Assembly (NCBI GenBank): GCA_023259685.1
Contig: JALRGP010000001.1
Span: 1-32,281, forward strand
Direction of reading: 5' to 3'
DNA length: 32,281 nt
From: Alphaproteobacteria bacterium
GTDB lineage: Bacteria > Pseudomonadota > Alphaproteobacteria > JALRGP01
In this document: positions 545 through 31,905 of the stretch, piece by piece
Layout of the letters: every line of letters starts with the position of its first letter
Numbering within the stretch: position 1 is the first letter of the stretch
Translations under genes and position numbers: made by a program
The notes under the pieces: generated by a model
The model's input: the letters and a program-made list of their open reading frames with translations, nothing else
What the model was told of the DNA's origin: nothing
The model's database searches: none

Positions 545-1663
545 CTATTCACTATTTTTAATTTGTTCTCTTATGTCTTGCATAAATTTATTCATAAAGT
601 ACACATTATGAATAGACAACAATGTGTAAGCAGTCATTTCTTTTGCCTTAAGTAAATGGTGGATGTATCCTTTGCTGTAGGTATGGCATGTTTCGCAGCT
701 GCAACCAAGCTCTATAGCCGAGTCATCTCGTGCATACATAGAATTTCTCAAATTGATATGTTCTTTGTCATGACCATTCACAAGAGCGCCCCCGTGACGT
801 GCTAAACGCGTAGGATGAACACAATCAAATGTATCAATGTTTTCCTTCACCCCATGGGTAATATCGCTTAGACCTCCGATTCCTAATAAATGAACAGGGC
901 GCTCGCAAGCCATATGACTCATTGTCATGGACACGACATCATGCATTTGAGATTTACTTTGTCCCAAAGATCCTCCAATGGCAACACCAAAAAAAGCATG
1001 TTCTTGCACAAACGTCATAGATTCTTTTCTGAGATCGTCATAAACACCTCCTTGGACAATTCCATACAGCCTTTGGGCAGGGGCGTCTAAAACATTTAAA
1101 CAACGTAAAGCCCACCGGTGACTGCGTTCCATTGATGATCTCGTATAAGATTTTTCGACGTGAAAGGGTGTGCACTCATCTAAAACAACAATGAAATCTG
1201 CCCCTAAATTTTGCTGAATGCGAATAGATTCTTCGGGAGTCAGGTGATACATACGCCCATCAATATATGATTTAAATAATGCTCCGTCTTCATTAATAGA
1301 CAACATTGTTTGAGGTCGATGAGACATGCGTTTGCCTTTAATTTCACTGGCTACAGAACCATGCCCTAAGCTAAAAATTTGAAATCCACCAGAATCTGTC
1401 AACATAGGGCCATTCCATCCTGTCATTTTTTGAAGACCTCCCAAATCTCTGACAACTTCACTAGACGGCTGCAGCATTAAATGATAGGTATTGCTTAAAA
1501 TAATTTGTGTTTGACTATGTTTGACTTGCGCAATTGTCATAGATTTCATAGCTGCTTTGGTTGCGCAAAAAATAAAAGCAGGCGTTTCAATGTCACCATG
1601 AGGAGTTCTTAATAGCCCTAAACGTCCTTTTGACGTTTTTTTTATAATTTTAAAGTCAAACAA
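545..1663 (-). CDS. tgt: queuine tRNA-ribosyltransferase (tRNA-guanine transglycosylase)
   Basis: 372-aa ORF with a TTG start at 1661-1663. N-terminus RLGLLRTPHGDIETPAF, catalytic LTDSGGFQIFSL, and zinc site LGCSCETCHTYSKGYIHHL (CxCxxC..H) are all hallmarks of bacterial Tgt. Confidence 0.93.
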   Translation of the reverse strand: MFDFKIIKKTSKGRLGLLRTPHGDIETPAFIFCATKAAMKSMTIAQVKHSQTQIILSNTYHLMLQPSSEVVRDLGGLQKMTGWNGPMLTDSGGFQIFSLGHGSVASEIKGKRMSHRPQTMLSINEDGALFKSYIDGRMYHLTPEESIRIQQNLGADFIVVLDECTPFHVEKSYTRSSMERSHRWALRCLNVLDAPAQRLYGIVQGGVYDDLRKESMTFVQEHAFFGVAIGGSLGQSKSQMHDVVSMTMSHMACERPVHLLGIGGLSDITHGVKENIDTFDCVHPTRLARHGGALVNGHDKEHINLRNSMYARDDSAIELGCSCETCHTYSKGYIHHLLKAKEMTAYTLLSIHNVYFMNKFMQDIREQIKNSE

Positions 1664-1831
1664 TTTGCCAATCTATTGATTATGTTTTTTTTATTATAGT
1701 TGGCAAAAAGCATTATGTCATTGGCATGTGCACATCTTGTTATGATAAAAATATATTTTATCTAAAATCTAGTTATTTAATTTTTTTAATTTGATAATCT
1801 AAGTAAAATGAGACATATATATATATTTAAA

Positions 1832-3259
1832 ATGATTGAACAAAGACATCGTTTTGCAAAAATTATTGCAACTATTGGTCCCCAAAGTTCAGATTTTTCC
1901 ACAATAGAGAATCTGTTTCTAAACGGTGTTGATGTTTTTCGGTTAAATTTTTCCCACGGCACCCACAATCATCATTCAGCAGCATTTGAATCAATCAGGC
2001 AAATTGAAAGTAAACATCAATGTCCTATTGCCATTGTCGGTGATCTTCAAGGGCCCAAATTCCGAATTGGAGAATTTAATGAATCTTTTGTTTCATTAAA
2101 AGAAAATCAGACATTCGATCTTTGTTATTCCTTAGGGATTGGAGATCATACAAAAGTTGGTCTTCCTCACCAAGAATTATTTACAGCTCTTCATGAAGGA
2201 GATTTTATCTATTTGCGTGATGGTTTAATTAAGCTGCAAATTATTAAAAAAGATGATGATATTTTAAAAACACGTGTTTTAAACCATGGAGATTTGGGGT
2301 CTAAACAAGGTGTCAATGTCCCAGGTGTTTATATTCCTTTGAACGTATTAACTCCCAAAGATCATGAAGATTTGGAATTCGCTTTGGCGTTGGGAGTGGA
2401 TTGGATTGCATTATCATTCGTTCAAATCCCCAAAGACGTCCAACAAGCCAAAACACTCATTCAAGATAAGGCTAAAATTATCGTCAAACTTGAAAAACCA
2501 AAAGCCATTCAATCGTTAGAACATATTGTTAAAATATCTGATGCCATTATGATTGCCAGGGGGGATTTAGGAATTGAAATTCCTCCAGAAAATGTCCCCA
2601 TTGTTCAAAGACAAATTATTCGCACCTGTCGTCGTTTATCAAAGCCCGTCATTGTGGCTACCCAAATGTTAGAATCCATGACGCATTCACCTTCACCAAC
2701 GCGGGCAGAGGTATCTGATGTGGCAACCGCTATTTATGAAGGCGTTGATGGTGTGATGTTATCTGGGGAAACTGCCATGGGAGAATACCCTTTGAAAGCA
2801 GCAGAAATGATGGATAAAATTATTAAACGTGTTGAGCAAGATCCTTTGTATAAAAAAAATTTGCATCATATGCAACCTAAATTACTTTATACAATTTCTG
2901 ACAGTATGGCTGCGGCTGCCAGGGAAATTTCTTCTTCGATTTCTGTCAGTGTCATTATTCCTTTTACAGAAACAGGAGATACCGCCATTCGCATTTCAAC
3001 GCAACGCCCCAGCAGCCCCATTTTATCCTTAACCCCATCCCTTAAAACATCCCGATTTCTTGCAATGATTTGGGGAATCAGATCTGTGATGATTAATCAA
3101 ATCAGTGCAATGGACGATATGATTTATACATCACACACCATTGCTAAAAAACTTAATTACGTGCAGCTGGGGGATTTAATGACAATTGTTGCGGGGATGC
3201 CTTTTGGGCAAGCAGGGATGACCAATTTAATTCGTATTGAAAAATGTACAACGGAATGA
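1832..3259 (+). CDS. pyk: pyruvate kinase
   Basis: Motifs AKIIATIGPQS, RLNFSHG, GPKFRIG, MIARGDLGIEIP and ATQMLESM. The ORF opens at 1808, but the ATG at 1832 (MIEQRHRFAKIIATIGP) gives the canonical N-terminal spacing. The stop abuts the stop of the convergent pabC-like gene with no spacer. Confidence 0.92.
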   Translation: MIEQRHRFAKIIATIGPQSSDFSTIENLFLNGVDVFRLNFSHGTHNHHSAAFESIRQIESKHQCPIAIVGDLQGPKFRIGEFNESFVSLKENQTFDLCYSLGIGDHTKVGLPHQELFTALHEGDFIYLRDGLIKLQIIKKDDDILKTRVLNHGDLGSKQGVNVPGVYIPLNVLTPKDHEDLEFALALGVDWIALSFVQIPKDVQQAKTLIQDKAKIIVKLEKPKAIQSLEHIVKISDAIMIARGDLGIEIPPENVPIVQRQIIRTCRRLSKPVIVATQMLESMTHSPSPTRAEVSDVATAIYEGVDGVMLSGETAMGEYPLKAAEMMDKIIKRVEQDPLYKKNLHHMQPKLLYTISDSMAAAAREISSSISVSVIIPFTETGDTAIRISTQRPSSPILSLTPSLKTSRFLAMIWGIRSVMINQISAMDDMIYTSHTIAKKLNYVQLGDLMTIVAGMPFGQAGMTNLIRIEKCTTE

Positions 3260-4000
3260 TTAGGCTGTCTTCAAATTCAACAGCCGAATGCCTCTTAAAC
3301 TATTAATCATAAAAATTGAGGAGGCTGTATGAAGATCATCAATTGTGATGTTACGCTCGTGAATTTTTTTTGATTCAATGAGATGTTGACGCATGATCCC
3401 ATCCACGCATCCTGATTTTAAATAGGGTGTCAAAAAACGTTGATCATGAGTTTGAATCACAACATTACCAACGGTCGTACAACATACATCTCCTTGGTCA
3501 TTTAAGATGATTGTATCTTGGTATAGGGATTCCATCCTTGATAAAATCTCAGTCATATAGTTTAATTTTTTAACGGGAGATAAAGGATCTTTTGAAAATC
3601 TCATTATTCTTGATACGTCGCATGTCAAAGCATTGTTTAGATCTTTCAAAAAATCATTCTCAAAATCATGAATCCATGGTTCTGAGATGCTGTCAACAAT
3701 CGTATAAAGTTGTGGTGTCAAATGGTGATTAAGAAGTCCGCGTTGTTCTTGGATGCCACGCGTGACGATCAATTTAATTGCACATGGATATGGATAATCC
3801 TTGCAAGAGTCATGAATGTGATGCCACAAAAAATGATCATCCCACATAAATGGAATTTTAAAAAGATCCGCACTTTTTTTAAGACGCTTCACATGGCTAT
3901 CAAAAAAGAAGGGCTCTTGGTCATAGCGAACAGTTGTAAAAAAACCATCACCAAATAAAAAACCTCTGTCTTTAATGGAAATGGTGTGAGTTTGAATCAT
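3260..4000 (-). CDS. pabC: fold-type IV PLP enzyme, aminodeoxychorismate lyase-like
   Basis: N-terminal DRGFLFGDGFFTT and the lysine motif VKKLNYM are typical of class IV aminotransferases. At 246 aa it fits ADC lyase better than BCAT or D-amino-acid aminotransferase. Its ATG (3998-4000) overlaps the TGA (3997-3999) of the upstream MFS gene. Confidence 0.7.
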   Translation of the reverse strand: MIQTHTISIKDRGFLFGDGFFTTVRYDQEPFFFDSHVKRLKKSADLFKIPFMWDDHFLWHHIHDSCKDYPYPCAIKLIVTRGIQEQRGLLNHHLTPQLYTIVDSISEPWIHDFENDFLKDLNNALTCDVSRIMRFSKDPLSPVKKLNYMTEILSRMESLYQDTIILNDQGDVCCTTVGNVVIQTHDQRFLTPYLKSGCVDGIMRQHLIESKKIHERNITIDDLHTASSIFMINSLRGIRLLNLKTA

Positions 4001-5190
4001 CTTTTTTTCTTAGATGTGCAGATGTATTTTTGGCATACTACAAAAACACACAAACTAACAAATGATATTGCGCAACCATACACAAACGTAAACCTGACCC
4101 CAAAACCATCCATCAAAAATCCAGCAATTTGTGATGACAACATATATCCAATGGCATTGATAAGATGAAAAATACCGTCAGCTGTCCCACGTAAATGTCT
4201 GGGGATTAAATCCGCAATCATGATAATGAACATACTTTGAGTGACGCCCAATTGAACACCCCATAAAACACAACTGAGTAAAAATGTATTTTTTTCTGCT
4301 CCTGCGAACAATAGTATGTCGGCGACGATCATCATCGCCATTCCAAATCCCAACAACACATGACGATTAATTTTGTCTGATAATCTTCCAATAGGGTAAG
4401 AAATAATCGATGATGCACCATTATACAAAACCGCAATATAAGGGATAAAACTCATTTCAATGTCAAAATTTTTCTTTCCGTGAAGAATGAGAAACGCTTC
4501 TCCTAAACGTGCCAACATAAATAAAAATGATATGCCCATTAATATCCAATATTCATGGCCTAGGGATGAAATGTCTTTGAAGGACATTTTTTTCTTTTGG
4601 ATATTTGATGGTGATTCAAAATCATGAACAAACAACATTAATAATACCAATCCCAATACAGCTGGAATTGTTGCAATCCAAAATACAACTGATAAATCAT
4701 CATGTGTTTTTTTAAGTAAAAAACTTCCCAATATACCACCAGCAACCGATCCAGCCGTGGCGAGAGTTTGTCTAAGCCCATAAGCTCTGCCCCGTACGCC
4801 CGGCAGCGCAAGGTCGCCGACCAATGCATCCCGCGGGGTTGCTTGAATACCATTGCCAATACGATCCAAAATTCGACTGATAAAAACATTCCAATAGCTC
4901 ATCTGAAGAGCCATGATCGGGCGTGCCAAAACACATAATCCAAATCCAACAACCATGATCCATTTCCGTTTTTGCAGGACATCACTCATCAAACCCGATA
5001 ATAATTTGACAAGATAGGATGCACTTTCCATGATCCCTTCTAAAAATCCAATGGCTGCGCCGCCAACTCCCAAAGATACATTCAAATAAACAGATGTTAA
5101 AGAAAATAAAATAACAGACGAGACATTTAAAAAGAAACTGGCAATTCCAATGACCCATATACCTTTTGGAATATTTAAATACCCTTTCAT
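3997..5190 (-). CDS. MFS transporter
   Basis: Multi-span hydrophobic profile and an MFS motif-A-like loop (SGLMSDVLQKRKW; also DRIGNGIQATPRDAL). The track ORF extends to 5373. The first 61 codons are non-hydrophobic and run into the ftsH upstream region. The ATG at 5188-5190 (MKGYLNIPKGIWVIG) is the plausible start. Confidence 0.85.
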   Translation of the reverse strand: MKGYLNIPKGIWVIGIASFFLNVSSVILFSLTSVYLNVSLGVGGAAIGFLEGIMESASYLVKLLSGLMSDVLQKRKWIMVVGFGLCVLARPIMALQMSYWNVFISRILDRIGNGIQATPRDALVGDLALPGVRGRAYGLRQTLATAGSVAGGILGSFLLKKTHDDLSVVFWIATIPAVLGLVLLMLFVHDFESPSNIQKKKMSFKDISSLGHEYWILMGISFLFMLARLGEAFLILHGKKNFDIEMSFIPYIAVLYNGASSIISYPIGRLSDKINRHVLLGFGMAMMIVADILLFAGAEKNTFLLSCVLWGVQLGVTQSMFIIMIADLIPRHLRGTADGIFHLINAIGYMLSSQIAGFLMDGFGVRFTFVYGCAISFVSLCVFVVCQKYICTSKKKR

Positions 5191-27640: not shown

Positions 27641-28092
27641 GATACATTAAAAAATATCAGAATTATTATTGATTAAATCAATAAATAATTAAAAAATAGT
27701 TAATTTTTTACTTTTTTATGACAAGTATTTTTGTAAATTTACACCCCAATGTTCTGTGGATAAACGTTTGAACAACATTGATTAAACTGTGTGAACAAAC
27801 TGTGTATAAAAAATTGTACACACATTACAACGTTTAATTAACACAGTTATTCACATATTGTTGAAAAGTAAAAAAAATACTTAGAAAAATTAGTTATTTT
27901 TTAAGTAAAAGATTGTGGATAAGTGGGTTTTTCCACAAATTCACAGGCCCAACAACAACAAATATTTATATATTTATATTATTTGTATGGAAAAATTTTC
28001 CTTTAAAATTAATAATTCATTAACCATTTTTAAACTTTTCGTTAATAAAAACTCTGCCATCTTAAAAATGTTCAACTTAAACGAGTTTTTTT
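27641..28092. other. candidate chromosomal replication origin (oriC): DnaA-box cluster flanked by A/T-rich putative unwinding tracts
   Basis: 452-bp non-coding spacer between divergent genes, with seven DnaA-box-like 9-mers in 27755-27937 (see next feature). The flanks 27641-27740 and 27950-28090 are about 85-90% A+T by eye. TTAA-N7-TTAA motifs occur at 27689-27703 and 28009-28023. Confidence 0.5.
27755..27937. promoter_or_regulatory. DnaA-box cluster (2 perfect, 3 consensus-class and 2 near-consensus boxes)
   Basis: Perfect TGTGGATAA (the complement of TTATCCACA) at 27755-27763 and 27914-27922. TGTGTATAA at 27801-27809 and TTATTCACA at 27847-27855 fit TTATNCACA. TTTTCCACA at 27929-27937 fits TTWTNCACA and forms an inverted pair with the 27914 box across a 6-nt spacer. 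TGTGAACAA at 27790-27798 and TTGTACACA at 27814-27822 are one step off the loose consensus. Confidence 0.8.
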
Positions 28093-31000
28093 ATGAAACA
28101 ATCCATTAGAGTCCTTGCGACAGGACTCTCGCTGAGCTGTGCCGCATTTGCAGTTCAGACAACATCTAGCTTGCTAGGCTTCCCTAGTCAATCCACAGAT
28201 TTCGCAAGAGCGCAAATTATTAAAAATCAATTAGGCGCATCCAGTACAGAAACAGTCGAACAAAAAATCGACAGTATTCGTAGATCCATCAGCTCAAATG
28301 CTAGCACTGTATCTCAAGGCGTTGAAAGTGTCAGAAAATTACTAAGGTCGTCAACCGATAGCCTTCGTCAACAATTAACGCGTTCTTTGACAATTTTGCA
28401 AACTCAAAATTCCACGATTACCGATGAATTGAAAGAAGAAATTGAACAAATCCAAAAACAAATTGATTTGTTAGCACCCGCATTAAATACAAACGATCTT
28501 TTCAGTATTATTTCCCAATTAAATACCAAAGTTGGTGGAAAATCTGGTGAAGACCTTATCACACGTTTACATAACATACAATTGTTTATTGATGGACAAT
28601 CCAGCATTGATGGACAATCCAGCAGTGATATTATTACATCTTTGATTAAATTTCAAAATATTTTGGATCCAAATCCAGCTAATGCATTTACGTTTAATCA
28701 ATCCAAAACAACGAATTTACTTGAAAAATTGAATAGATCTAACGATAATCTTGGCGGAACAGGTGCCGGTATTTTGGGAAGAACAGCTTTGTTAAAAAGC
28801 TTGTTAAACAAAAAATCCACACTTGATATGTATTCAATTATCAATGAATTAATGGGACGTGTTGGTGGTTTTTCTCAAGACATGAGCACACGTTTAGACG
28901 CATTATCTAAACTTGTTAATGGAATGAATGGAACATCTTTGACAAATTCTTTGGAAGCAATTTCTCAAAATATTGGTCTTGGACAAGGTGAAAATTTACA
29001 AACAGTTTTGCCCGATATTATTACAAAAATCAGCAGCACAACCGGAGTTCAAGGAACATTGATGTCAATTGTTGACAAATTTTCCCAAGCCTTGAACCAA
29101 CGCATTGGAATATCTGGTTCGAATACGCAAGAAAAATTAAACAGAGTATTCTCAGAATTACAAGGCCAAGGTAACGTTGGTGGTGATCTTCAAACAATTA
29201 TTAATAGTGTTAATAACAACCTAAGCGGTAACACATTAAAAGGGACGACCAATTTGTTATTGGATGCTCAAGATATGTTGCGTCAAGGATCTAGTGGTCT
29301 TGGAAATGTTTTAGATCGTATTATTTTATCTTTGCAATCAACGGTCAAAAGGCAAATTGGTGGTTTGACATTATTGGATTTGTTAACAGATGCACAAGCT
29401 GGTATTTTCTCTCTGACTGGAGGATCTGCATTTGATGGTGTATCATACAGTTTGTTTGAAAATTTATCAAACCTCAGAACATTGGTCGATCCAACAGCAG
29501 GAAATTCAACACTTTATGAACTGTTGGTGAATAACTTTAATGATGTTTTGGGTGGTAATCCATACAGTTCAACAAACGGATTGTATCAAAACCTTAGAAA
29601 CATGTCATTGCTTTTAAAAGGTCAGGCAAAATCCACATCACAAACAGATATTACAAACTTTATCAGAGTTAATATGTTTGGTCTGATGGGTGGTCAACCA
29701 TTTTCAACAACGACATCACCATTCAATGGTGTATATGATTCTTTGCAATTAATTCATGACGCCGTCACAGGTCGAACATCAGACATTTCTTCCAATACAA
29801 TTATTGATTCTTTGAATAGAGTACAATCCTTACTTTGGAATAACTTGTCAGGTTCGCAAGCAAGTTCTGGAAATATTTATTCAGATTTAACAAGTTTGAA
29901 TCGCTTGTTTGAATACGCAAATGGTGGAAAAAGTTTAGCTGAAATTCTGTTTACAGATATCTCTCCTTTGTTAAAATGTGGTTTTGCAAATGGAGAAGGT
30001 GTGTATGAAATTTTGGTTCAAATCATGCAAAACCTTAACCCGCAAAGTTCATTAAATCTTTTTGAATTAACTGGAAGTGCTTCAAACTCAAATAGCATTC
30101 CTTACTTGATTGGTGGCGGTACGAATACAGTCAGTATCTACAAAAGATTAAAAGATGTTCAATCTTTCCTCAGAAATGGTTCAACGTCATCTCTTCAAAC
30201 AATCGTAACCCAAGATATGAATGATATTATCGGTGGTGCCTCAATTGTATCGGGTGTTAACAGTTTGTTTGACAATTTGTTTAATATCTCTAATCAATTG
30301 AAAAATTATCCATTTATGGGAACCTCATCAAACATTACAACATTGGTGGGACAAGCATCAAAAATGTTAACAGACGAATTGACAGGTATTTCCGGTATCA
30401 ACAGTTCTTCACTGAGTTTGCCACAAGCAACATCCAGTGTTAAAGGTGTACTTGGATATGGGTCAAATAAATCATTGATGAATCAGATCGTAGGATCTGC
30501 TATTAATGATAGCGTTCTAGCTGATTTAAATTTGAACTCAACCCGTGATGTTAAAACAGCCATTAACCGTTTACGTAACTTTATTGGAAACGAATATACA
30601 GAATCGAGCATCCAAAATATGTTGATATCTAAACTTGCAACATCTGGCGTAAAAGGTCACCTAGAAGGAAACGGACCTAACGGAAACAGTAGTGCTTCCA
30701 TTCATGATGCAATCCAAAATATTAGAACATTACTTGGTTATATAAACTATGGAACTAACCTTTTAGATAACGTATCCAATAAAAATGCAAATCGTGGTAT
30801 TGTTGGCGATCTAGTTGGTGGATCCTTGGTCAACGGTAATACGGTCAGCGCTAACATTAATGCCATTAAACGTGCAATTTCTCCCGCAGTTAATGGTTAT
30901 ACAAGTGCGAATGTCTATGATTTAATTACAAAAGAATCGGTCACATCTGGTGTGCTTGGAGATTTGGGGGTTCCAACAGAATCTGCACAAACCGTTAAAG

Positions 31001-31842
31001 AAGCAATCACATTCTTAAGAAACAGATTAGACCAAGGATCCATCCAAGGAATTCGAGGTATTATCCAAAGTATTCAAGGGTTAATGGGATATCCACAAGA
31101 TGATGATTCATGCTTTGGTGGGAATGGTACAGATATGAAACAAACAGTTGTTGCGATTAGAAATTACTTATCTAATCACCCAACACAAACTGTTATTGAT
31201 AGAATTACCAATATCAAAGGATTATTGTCTGTAAGCACCACCGATGATATTGAAGTACGCATCAAAAATATCTTGATGACACTTCATGCAAATCAATCCG
31301 GTGTTGTTGCCAATGTATTGACGGATATTTACGACAGAGTTGGTGATTCTCCAGATTGTGGATCTCAATCAATTCTTGACAACGTGAAAGCTGTTCAAGA
31401 TAAAATTGGTGTGGGAGATACAACGACGAATCCAAATTCCGTATTTTCAGGTTTAAACAACTTTGGAGAATTGATTAAAACTGGCTTCACTGCAAGTGGT
31501 GAAACATTGGTTCAATCAATTACCGAATTTAATCAATACCTTGGTACACCAACAACTTATGATGCCCTTAATTTTGGTAACATGTTTTATTCTGGTGGAT
31601 TCACATTAACGTCTCAAACTTTGTCAAGAGCCATTGGTACGAATCAAGATGATATCACCAGTGATACATTATACGGATATATGAATGGTATTAATACGCA
31701 AGTTCAAACATTAAAAGGATCTGGATCTGCAACGTATACAAAAGTGACTATTGATCTACCAGAAAGTGGTTTTACGAATACAACAATTTTAGATTTCTTG
31801 GGTGATATTTATACCAAGTTATCAACAGGTGTAGCATCGTAA
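28093..31842 (+). CDS. lineage-specific secreted or surface repeat protein (1249 aa) built from degenerate ~35-45-aa helix-Gly-helix modules
   Basis: Uninterrupted 1249-codon ORF. Sec-type signal MKQSIRVLATGLSLSCAAFA|VQ (AxA site). Residues ~50-130 look like coiled coil. From ~130 to ~1130 a module recurs, e.g. NDLFSIISQLNTKVGGKSGEDLITRLHNIQLFIDG, LDMYSIINELMGRVGGFSQDMSTRLDALSKLVNG, STLYELLVNNFNDVLGGNPYSSTNGLYQNLRNMSLLLKG, SLQTIVTQDMNDIIGGASIVSGVNSLFDNLFNISNQL and RGIVGDLVGGSLVNGNTVSANINAIKRAISP. Composition is N/S/T/G/L/Q-rich. There is no RTX nonapeptide and no C-terminal aromatic OMP signature. Confidence 0.85.
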   Translation: MKQSIRVLATGLSLSCAAFAVQTTSSLLGFPSQSTDFARAQIIKNQLGASSTETVEQKIDSIRRSISSNASTVSQGVESVRKLLRSSTDSLRQQLTRSLTILQTQNSTITDELKEEIEQIQKQIDLLAPALNTNDLFSIISQLNTKVGGKSGEDLITRLHNIQLFIDGQSSIDGQSSSDIITSLIKFQNILDPNPANAFTFNQSKTTNLLEKLNRSNDNLGGTGAGILGRTALLKSLLNKKSTLDMYSIINELMGRVGGFSQDMSTRLDALSKLVNGMNGTSLTNSLEAISQNIGLGQGENLQTVLPDIITKISSTTGVQGTLMSIVDKFSQALNQRIGISGSNTQEKLNRVFSELQGQGNVGGDLQTIINSVNNNLSGNTLKGTTNLLLDAQDMLRQGSSGLGNVLDRIILSLQSTVKRQIGGLTLLDLLTDAQAGIFSLTGGSAFDGVSYSLFENLSNLRTLVDPTAGNSTLYELLVNNFNDVLGGNPYSSTNGLYQNLRNMSLLLKGQAKSTSQTDITNFIRVNMFGLMGGQPFSTTTSPFNGVYDSLQLIHDAVTGRTSDISSNTIIDSLNRVQSLLWNNLSGSQASSGNIYSDLTSLNRLFEYANGGKSLAEILFTDISPLLKCGFANGEGVYEILVQIMQNLNPQSSLNLFELTGSASNSNSIPYLIGGGTNTVSIYKRLKDVQSFLRNGSTSSLQTIVTQDMNDIIGGASIVSGVNSLFDNLFNISNQLKNYPFMGTSSNITTLVGQASKMLTDELTGISGINSSSLSLPQATSSVKGVLGYGSNKSLMNQIVGSAINDSVLADLNLNSTRDVKTAINRLRNFIGNEYTESSIQNMLISKLATSGVKGHLEGNGPNGNSSASIHDAIQNIRTLLGYINYGTNLLDNVSNKNANRGIVGDLVGGSLVNGNTVSANINAIKRAISPAVNGYTSANVYDLITKESVTSGVLGDLGVPTESAQTVKEAITFLRNRLDQGSIQGIRGIIQSIQGLMGYPQDDDSCFGGNGTDMKQTVVAIRNYLSNHPTQTVIDRITNIKGLLSVSTTDDIEVRIKNILMTLHANQSGVVANVLTDIYDRVGDSPDCGSQSILDNVKAVQDKIGVGDTTTNPNSVFSGLNNFGELIKTGFTASGETLVQSITEFNQYLGTPTTYDALNFGNMFYSGGFTLTSQTLSRAIGTNQDDITSDTLYGYMNGINTQVQTLKGSGSATYTKVTIDLPESGFTNTTILDFLGDIYTKLSTGVAS
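28588..28623 (+). repeat. perfect 18-bp tandem duplication (ATTGATGGACAATCCAGC x2) encoding IDGQSS-IDGQSS
   Basis: Read directly: 28588-28605 and 28606-28623 are identical and in frame within the 1249-aa gene. Confidence 0.95.
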
Positions 31843-31865
31843 ATTAAATAGCATAGTTTTTTAAG

Positions 31866-31905
31866 GGGGAACCTCTCGTTAGGGAGGCTCCTCTTTTATT
31901 TTTTA
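31866..31905 (+). terminator. intrinsic terminator of the 1249-aa gene
   Basis: GGGGAACCTCTC-GTTA-GGGAGGCTCCTC hairpin: 12 stem positions with one A-C mismatch, two G-U pairs and a GTTA loop. It is followed by TTTTATTTTTT and lies 24 nt after the stop. Confidence 0.7.

Follow-up and report, generated by a model that had tools for sequence, protein, structure and literature searches.

The window analyzed here, positions 1 to 32,281 of the forward strand of contig JALRGP010000001.1 (assembly GCA_023259685.1, an alphaproteobacterium), is a DNA stretch of 32,281 nucleotides. It carries a single long open reading frame (ORF), which begins with ATG and encodes 1249 amino acids followed by a stop codon. 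An earlier note on this DNA had pointed out this ORF and had proposed that it encodes a secreted protein built of repeated helical modules. We find that the ORF is a real gene and is selectively constrained. As far as its sequence tells, the product is a large exported protein of helical repeats; the general type is familiar, and the sequence family to which it belongs matches no described one.

Word-indexed searches among 5.8 billion proteins, and a HMMER profile scan that exhaustively covered 1.84 billion representatives, returned as relatives only P0001, P0002, and P0003, together with two fragments (P0004 and P0005); a further match, P0006, proved spurious, being a eukaryote-like leucine-rich repeat (LRR) protein. 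Scans of genomes, metagenomes, and viral contigs yielded one locus in a metagenome-assembled genome (MAG), L004, and the P0002 contig again, and no relative among the viral contigs. The window protein, P0001, L004, and the fragments P0004 and P0005 form one clade; P0002 is 47% identical, and P0003, with 1321 aa, is 31% identical. There are about four lineages in total, the other lineages all coming from metagenome assemblies or a MAG. L004 lies in a Lake Mendota MAG labelled 'Alphaproteobacteria bacterium' and is the only named relative of the locus. No homologue carries an annotation, and a publication on Deianiraea describes no comparable protein.

Neither the single sequences nor a profile of the four lineages found a significant family in Pfam, NCBIfam, PHROGs, or the PDB sequences. 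With the scan of 1.84 billion proteins, this upholds the view that the protein has no recognizable family. No TPR, Sel1, HEAT, ARM, or ankyrin match was found for the window protein by hmmscan of Pfam-A at E up to 1, nor in NCBIfam for the window protein, P0002, and P0003. The best Pfam match, Apolipoprotein A1/A4/E (PF01442; residues 53-121, E = 0.0015), reaches 18.7 bits where the gathering threshold is 90; DUF1664 and ApoL also remain below threshold. In the PDB sequence search, apolipophorin-III was seen at E = 1.2. Alpha-xenorhabdolysin subunit B (XaxB; NF033927) scores 17 bits where 40 are required, and no single stretch of it passes; PHROGs contributed one match of unknown function (E = 0.0066) restricted to residues 55-147.

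Comparison with the 77%-identical L004 orthologue gives a rate of synonymous substitution (dS) of ~1.0, which is near saturation, a rate of nonsynonymous substitution (dN) of 0.14, and a dN/dS ratio of 0.14; for the 47%-identical P0002, dN/dS is 0.29. Purifying selection is detected over 1243 codons, and the weakest constraint is found in the last 250 residues (dN/dS of 0.24 vs. L004 and 0.75 vs. P0002). The GC content of the gene (35.7% overall and 26% at third codon positions, GC3) is like that of the rest of the window, and the gene is therefore taken to be native. The mature protein has a mass of ~131 kDa and a pI of about 5.1. P0001 (locus L003, 8820-12551) represents a 99% identical strain. 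It differs from the window protein by four nonsynonymous substitutions (N280D, E357Q, P491S, and S1191N), no synonymous ones, and an 18-bp indel, so that all differences between the two are protein-changing, with numbers too small for a test.

The N-terminus (MKQSIRVLATGLSLSCAAFA / VQ) has the layout of a Sec signal peptide: the basic residues are K2 and R6, the hydrophobic core is short, and cleavage is predicted at A-F-A. All four lineages (window, L004, P0002, and P0003) have an equivalent one in the alignments, as expected from the AxA-type signal peptide of the earlier note. The lipobox pattern [LVI][ASTVI][GAS]C is absent: Cys16 is preceded by S-L-S, and P0002 and P0003 have no Cys there. 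Since the signal-peptide Cys is not conserved, the protein is not a lipoprotein. Following the signal peptide, the lineages share a head of consensus LLG[FY]PSQSTD.ARAQ, and a long helix at residues 73-105 is the best-scoring stretch of the structure model (pLDDT about 50-56, the predicted local distance difference test). This helix and the weak sub-threshold apolipoprotein and coiled-coil matches agree with the coiled-coil-like segment that had been noticed here. P0003 lacks residues about 75-145.

The repeat body makes up most of the protein and is predicted to consist of ~50 short amphipathic helices between turns rich in Gly, Ser, Asn, and Thr. Its basic period is about 21 aa (one helix and one turn), with a hairpin super-unit of about 45-50 aa. 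Fourier analyses of the window protein, P0002, and P0003 against shuffled sequences give a hydrophobic period of 3.3-3.6 aa (z = 6-15) and a period of ~20-23 aa for Gly and other loop-type residues (z = 5.7-11). The Gly period of about 21 reaches z values of up to 8.7-11 in these three members, which are only 31%-47% identical. Power at period 2 is not raised and is below average in the C-terminal 300 residues. The hydrophobic period, taken with the lack of period-2 power, therefore indicates amphipathic alpha-helices rather than beta-solenoid coils.

This periodicity bears on the possibility that the protein is a beta-helix or amyloid-type adhesin, in which the ~21-residue period with its conserved Gly and Asn would correspond to beta-solenoid coils like those of autotransporter passengers, chlamydial Pmps, or curli-like repeats. 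Beta-solenoid adhesins have a period of ~21-22 residues, are S/T/N/G-rich, and carry few charges; the period and composition of the window protein would suit them equally well, and its helix assignment comes from AlphaFold models of low confidence. Nevertheless, we regard such a fold as very improbable: the hydrophobic periodicity is 3.3-3.6 and not 2, the repeat segments are rich in Leu, Ile, Gln, and Arg with spacings of i, i+3/4, and i+7, and we found no GGA[ILV] motif, no Chlam_PMP, Fil_haemagg, or pertactin profile match, and no beta-barrel. Chlamydial Pmps, with their GGA[ILV] and FxxN motifs, resemble the window protein in being large exported proteins with many short Gly-Gly motif copies. 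They differ from it in that FxxN is not systematically repeated in the window protein, which has helical periodicity, no autotransporter barrel, and no Pfam match.

Homology among the repeats is seen in profile self-alignment (hhalign), in which residues 230-765 align with 123-587 (E = 7e-7, a shift of about 107 residues) and residues 865-1052 with 815-1005 (E = 6e-5, a shift of 50). An iterated hidden Markov model (HMM) scores the four tandem units at residues 815-1014 at 44-66 bits, compared with ≤5.4 bits in shuffled sequences. Each of these units joins a helix of the form xSxxIxxAIxxIRxxLG by a short link to a second helix, the end of which reads GV.GDL.G. Only one further unit, at residues 288-323, is clearly homologous to these four. 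Iteration yields no more than five units per protein, and outside the five the HMM does not separate the sequence from shuffled controls. At the DNA level, short remnants spaced 327 and 813 nt apart agree with the shifts seen in the protein.

These data both support and narrow the repeat architecture of the earlier note. Every motif instance that it quoted lies where it had been placed. The hydrophobic-Gly-Gly turn of its helix-GG-helix unit is enriched, [LIVMF]GG occurring 11 times in the window protein against 3.4 expected (P = 0.0005) and the corresponding motif of P0003, which reads ..L-I-G-G-N/S, 18 times against 4.5. The proposed second helix is not enriched as a simple pattern, with h..R/K..h observed eight times against 7.6 expected. 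The repetitiveness exceeds chance, but the proposed number of 25-30 modules is reached only by halving the ~54 predicted helices; there are 14 GG sites in all, and five units are demonstrably homologous. By predicted secondary structure, paired helices would give about 25 hairpins of the helix-turn-helix type, each of 45-50 aa, which probably derive from ancient tandem duplication. That the array is old and under selection, as had also been claimed, is supported by a dN/dS of 0.14 at a dS of about 1 and with the decay of the DNA repeats.

It could be argued that the repeat is meaningless, its periodicity being accidental and the ORF either a compositionally biased orphan or a tape-measure or fibre gene of phage origin. 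In favor of this view, the family is very small, none of its homologues is annotated, and just five units pass the HMM test. We consider this barely credible, and it is largely refuted already by the periodicity and selection results, given the purifying selection along the gene and the independent recurrence of the periodicities and of the hydrophobic-GG turn in members just 31% identical. Phage, plasmid, viral-contig, and PHROG collections supply no matches that would support it (tblastn found none in 50,697 phage records, in IMG/VR, or in the plasmid collection), and the genes close by are housekeeping genes. On the P0003 contig (L006), positions 3985-4392 hold a strong terminator hairpin followed, on inspection by eye, by the apparent 3′ end of a recA-like gene in convergent orientation. 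This marks the contig as genomic and chromosomal, not phage-derived.

The loops of the repeat body are more conserved than its helices. Invariant columns make up 29% of loop positions compared with 18% of helix positions, and of 75 Gly positions in loops, 41 are invariant, which points to a fixed turn geometry. The number of modules and the length of loops vary among members. P0003 has extra inserted modules, the last module of P0002 is duplicated, and one loop of the window protein contains an exact 18-bp tandem duplication (IDGQSS IDGQSS) that is strain-specific, being absent in P0001, L004, and P0002. As the earlier note had it, this is the only long repeat left at the DNA level; Tandem Repeats Finder (TRF) and a repeat search detect no other in the gene. 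Such tolerance of module and loop changes is in keeping with a structural role.

The C-terminal module, recognizable in all four lineages, has the consensus YGY.NGIN ... D.L...Y..LS, and its second copy stands at the end of P0002. The four-lineage alignment shows Y1196, N1198, I1200, N1201, T1206, D1234, L1236, and S1244 to be invariant. The module has neither beta-type periodicity nor a transmembrane (TM) segment.

Structure prediction gave models of low confidence throughout. An AlphaFold2 run on residues 22-1221 with a three-row alignment reached a pLDDT of 33 and a predicted template modelling score (pTM) of 0.27. Residues 815-1014, modelled with an alignment of orthologous and paralogous non-overlapping 200-aa blocks, reached 46 and 0.25, respectively. 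Secondary structure assignment with DSSP found only helices and no strands in both runs. The first run assigned 54 helices, and the median lengths of helices and intervening loops were 13 and 8 aa, respectively. Such short helices are characteristic of solenoids; stable coiled-coil fibres need longer ones. A Foldseek search of the residues 815-1014 model against the PDB returned no match (best E = 6.5).

The picture that emerges would be that of a Sec-exported, nonenzymatic structural protein with a conserved N-terminal head, one long helix, and then a helical body of ~1050 residues. In this body, some 50 short amphipathic helices would each end in a conserved Gly-rich cap, often a hydrophobic-Gly-Gly turn. 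Most plausibly, the hairpins stack into an elongated alpha-solenoid or rod in which the hydrophobic faces of the helices form the core and the conserved Gly/Asn/Ser/Thr loops one continuous edge. It might serve a low-GC alphaproteobacterium of fresh water as a scaffold for a surface layer, for spacing, or for adhesion; host association of the bacterium is a guess.

Among the known proteins to which it comes close are long exported alpha-solenoids of Gram-negative envelopes of the Sel1/TPR type. An example is Legionella EnhC, a periplasmic protein of ~1200 aa that contains about 20 Sel1 repeats. The window protein likewise has a signal peptide, about 1200 aa, and no catalytic domain, with tens of tandem helix-turn-helix units (about 36-50 aa) and a conserved Gly at the turns. 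In contrast to this type, its loops are longer and more conserved than its helices, it has hydrophobic-GG caps where Sel1 has an Ala/Gly pattern, and it matches no Sel1, TPR, or HEAT profile.

Where the protein acts is suggested by its signal peptide and its composition. Ser, Thr, Asn, and Gly together account for 40% of residues, compared with 20%-28% in the 23 other ORFs of the window. Lys, Arg, Glu, and Asp amount to 15%, compared with 18.5%-31% in 20 of those 23; only two major facilitator superfamily (MFS) transporters and MlaE are lower (9%-14%). The members are acidic (pI 4.6-5.4) and have one to three Cys, the Cys content of the window protein being 0.3%. N-glycosylation is rejected, as NxS/T sequons are not enriched. 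As a statistical hint, such a composition appears typical of proteins that leave the Gram-negative cell, including surface-layer (S-layer) proteins. The low charge, the near absence of Cys, the acidic pI, and the 40% S/T/N/G content therefore lead us to place the protein on or in the outer envelope. A surface or outer-envelope structural or adhesive protein is thus the reading that we tentatively favor, from the signal peptide and composition, while holding it to be somewhat short of probable. The earlier note had proposed a fibrous surface, S-layer, or host-contact protein, which the signal peptide and composition make plausible.

The Gram-negative S-layer proteins VapA of Aeromonas (which has a signal peptide and type II secretion system [T2SS]-type export) and RsaA of Caulobacter offer a comparison for this reading. 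Like S-layer proteins, the window protein has a mass of ~130 kDa and an acidic pI, contains hardly any Cys, and is rich in Thr, Ser, Asn, Gly, and hydrophobic residues; the gene shares with S-layer genes a monocistronic organization, a strong terminator, and a conserved leader. Unlike them, it shows no similarity to S-layer families of the PDB or Pfam and no RTX or type I secretion system (T1SS) signal, and the likeness is compositional only.

Several observations weigh against an outer-envelope location. In Gram-negative bacteria, a Sec signal alone takes a protein to the periplasm, not across the outer membrane, and the window protein has no autotransporter barrel, two-partner-secretion domain, RTX/T1SS signal, lipobox, or known anchor. 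In none of the loci examined do secretion genes adjoin the gene. Composition is no more than a statistical hint as to location, and the low-confidence models (pLDDT 33 and 46, pTM 0.25-0.27) and empty Foldseek search leave solenoid, bundle, and rod all as candidate folds. Particular export and anchoring routes were considered in turn. GG.G.D occurs in isolation once in the window protein (residue 1009) and once in P0003; the full RTX pattern is absent, and the signal peptide is N-terminal. An autotransporter or trimeric autotransporter is contradicted by the lack of a Pfam autotransporter or YadA-anchor match and by helical periodicity in the C-terminal 300 aa of all four members, and LPXTG sorting by the absence of LP.TG and of a C-terminal hydrophobic segment in a Gram-negative organism. 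The window protein has no C-terminal aromatic residue. The motif search and periodicity thus agree with the earlier note, which had seen no RTX, barrel, LPXTG, or C-terminal aromatic signature.

With no feature to explain passage of the outer membrane, a periplasmic alpha-solenoid scaffold, i.e., a long helical-repeat spacer or organizer of envelope machinery or peptidoglycan like Sel1/TPR-type proteins, becomes almost as likely as the favored reading, although taken by itself we would still call it unlikely. The protein has a Sec signal only, without an outer-membrane translocation or anchoring feature; its size and its ~45- to 50-aa helix-turn-helix modularity resemble those of long periplasmic helical-repeat proteins; strong purifying selection along its whole length is what a structural housekeeping role would predict; and the window encodes ordinary envelope machinery (LptA/B, MlaE, and TamB). 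Set against these are the missing TPR, Sel1, and HEAT profile matches (at E up to 1), a composition very low in Lys/Arg/Glu and high in S/T/N/G that is more extreme than in most ORFs of the window, and a distribution over only about four lineages among 1.84 billion representatives, which is unusual for core envelope machinery.

Amphipathic helices every ~21 aa, punctuated by helix breakers, could also rearrange on a target membrane, making the protein a secreted membrane- or lipid-interacting effector or toxin similar to apolipoproteins or alpha-pore formers. The weak sub-threshold matches to Apolipoprotein A1/A4/E, ApoL, and alpha-xenorhabdolysin subunit B point in this direction. They are, however, far below curated thresholds and cover <10% of the protein. 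After the signal peptide, a hydropathy scan finds no further segment at the TM threshold, with a 19-residue maximum of 1.2, and no hydrophobic hairpin of TM-like hydropathy (maximum 1.2-1.5); an alpha-helical pore-forming toxin of the XaxB/ClyA type is rejected by this result and by its profile score. Class-A lipid-binding helices have a charged polar-face pattern, whereas the polar faces here carry Ser, Thr, Asn, and Gln, not Lys and Glu, and the conserved loops argue for a fixed rather than a rearranging fold. Exchangeable apolipoproteins (PF01442), in which 22-residue helices are punctuated by Pro, do share with the window protein amphipathic helices every ~21-22 residues between breakers. 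In the window protein, Gly-rich loops of 8 aa take the place of single Pro residues as breakers, the polar faces are uncharged, and the PF01442 match covers only residues 53-121 and so does not reach the repeat body. We therefore consider a membrane-active effector improbable.

Features of the gene and its flanks are listed in Table 1.

Table 1. Sequence features of the 1249-aa ORF and flanking regions (window coordinates)
Feature	Position	Strand	Evidence
Complete coding sequence	28093..31842	+	ORF list; dN/dS; GC/GC3 typical of window
Sec-type (signal peptidase I) signal peptide, residues 1-20, predicted cleavage after A-F-A	28093..28152	+	Sequence features, alignments
Conserved mature N-terminus (LLGFPSQSTDFARAQIIKNQLGA), then long-helix coiled-coil-like segment (residues about 50-130)	28153..28482	+	Alignments; AlphaFold DSSP
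Repeat body, residues about 131-1189	28483..31659	+	AlphaFold DSSP, Fourier peaks, hhalign self-hits, hydrophobic-GG enrichment, loop conservation
Exact 18-bp tandem duplication in loop	28588..28623	+	TRF, repeat search
Four clearly homologous tandem units of ~50 aa: residues 815-864, 865-915, 916-964, 965-1014	30535..31134	+	hhalign, iterated HMM
C-terminal module (LYGYMNGINTQVQTL ... ILDFLGDIYTKLSTGVAS)	31660..31839	+	Alignment; recognizable in all four lineages
Intrinsic terminator: 14-bp interrupted stem, then U-run	31863..31905	+	RNA fold, pattern scan
Conserved upstream block, candidate promoter and 5′ leader (function inferred)	27951..28092	+	Comparison with L004, motif search
Five DnaA-box-like 9-mers: 27755, 27801, 27847, 27914, 27929	27755..27937	.	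Pattern search

The gene is probably monocistronic, forming its own transcription unit, delimited by a conserved region 5′ of the gene and a strong terminator 3′ of it. The hairpin of this terminator has a folding energy of -19.8 kcal/mol (z = -3.1) and is followed by a U-run, in accord with the strong terminator that had been described. The corresponding genes of L004 and L006 are also followed by hairpin and U-run terminators, which are not homologous to that of the window. Just 5′ of the start lie a GAG Shine-Dalgarno remnant (28083-28085) and a T-run, an arrangement, ACGAG(G)TTTTTTTATG, that recurs in the P0002 orthologue. The P0002 contig itself (L001/L002, 1-3972; JGI sample 3300004769) is almost gene-length: it starts 17 nt 5′ of the ATG (equivalent to window position 28076) and ends shortly after the stop codon, as a transcript assembly may do. 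Rfam searches found nothing in the flanks of the gene.

Approximately 350 nt of upstream sequence travel with the gene. Window and L004 are 78% identical over this region and 85% identical over its last 142 nt, compared with about 44% identity at the synonymous sites of the gene; the conservation ends at about position 27745. The DnaA-box-like cluster lies 156-338 nt upstream of the start codon, two of its boxes being perfect TTATCCACA and three having one mismatch, and L004 (6799-6980) has the same five boxes in the same order and spacing although its far-side gene differs. A CtrA-box-like TTAA-N7-TTAA at 28009-28023, just 5′ of a conserved TAAACT hexamer (28031-28036), is kept in L004 (TTAATAACTCTTTAA). 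Two of the four matches to this pattern in the whole window are located in this 450-bp intergenic region (27689-27703 and 28009-28023). The earlier note had put the gene beside a candidate origin. An adjoining, conserved DnaA-box cluster does exist, and the block is compatible with oriC; it would fit a conserved promoter or leader, possibly cell-cycle-regulated or DnaA-regulated, equally well.

Neighboring genes are not shared. In the window these are an 837-aa orphan and HisRS, and in L004 thiamin pyrophosphokinase and OmpA-like genes, with a thioredoxin reductase gene downstream; the two neighborhoods are not syntenic, so that conserved operon partners are rejected. The divergent 837-aa ORF (25127-27640, minus strand) has a signal-peptide-like N-terminus and the lowest GC content of the window (29%). 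It is syntenic in L003 and absent at the corresponding place in L004. The earlier description of this neighbor as an LRR protein is not supported: it has no Pfam LRR match and no other significant family match. Other genes of the window are ordinary Gram-negative housekeeping genes, including TGT, pyruvate kinase, FtsH, LptA/LptB, MlaE, MetRS, TamB, ZnuA, and HisRS.

Two further observations concern other parts of these loci. A DDE_Tnp_1 transposase ORF (18451-19242, minus strand) abuts a methyltransferase-like ORF (19248-20555, plus strand), whose GC content of 44% and GC3 of 47% are far above those of other window ORFs (GC3 22%-34%). This high GC and GC3 beside a transposase suggests that the pair is a horizontally acquired insertion. 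L004 has, two genes upstream of the orthologue, a 1082-aa ORF (1438-4686, minus strand) with no Pfam match, which is unrelated to the 837-aa ORF of the window and contains near-identical internal repeats, NDYYQNSFN and DKFEGNKQYQND occurring twice each.

A more ambitious interpretation, which we regard as doubtful, would join these strands. The units of ~21-residue helix and hydrophobic-Gly-Gly turn would represent a new alpha-helical repeat fold that assembles a surface layer or fibre in uncultured freshwater alphaproteobacteria, with its expression wired to the cell cycle through the DnaA-box/CtrA-box region, or with the gene marking the chromosome origin in this clade. For now, the protein is one more well-documented 'dark-matter' envelope protein. 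If the outer-envelope reading is true, it represents an orphan family of large exported helical-repeat proteins that occurs only in a few uncultured alphaproteobacteria from lakes and lies beyond current structure prediction. The conserved linkage to the DnaA-box/CtrA-box region could be useful for finding the replication origin or could show that an envelope protein of this clade is under cell-cycle control, and the regular Gly-capped short-helix module may be of interest for the study and design of repeat proteins. For the bacteria themselves, such proteins would be likely determinants of how cells present themselves to grazers, hosts, and phages.

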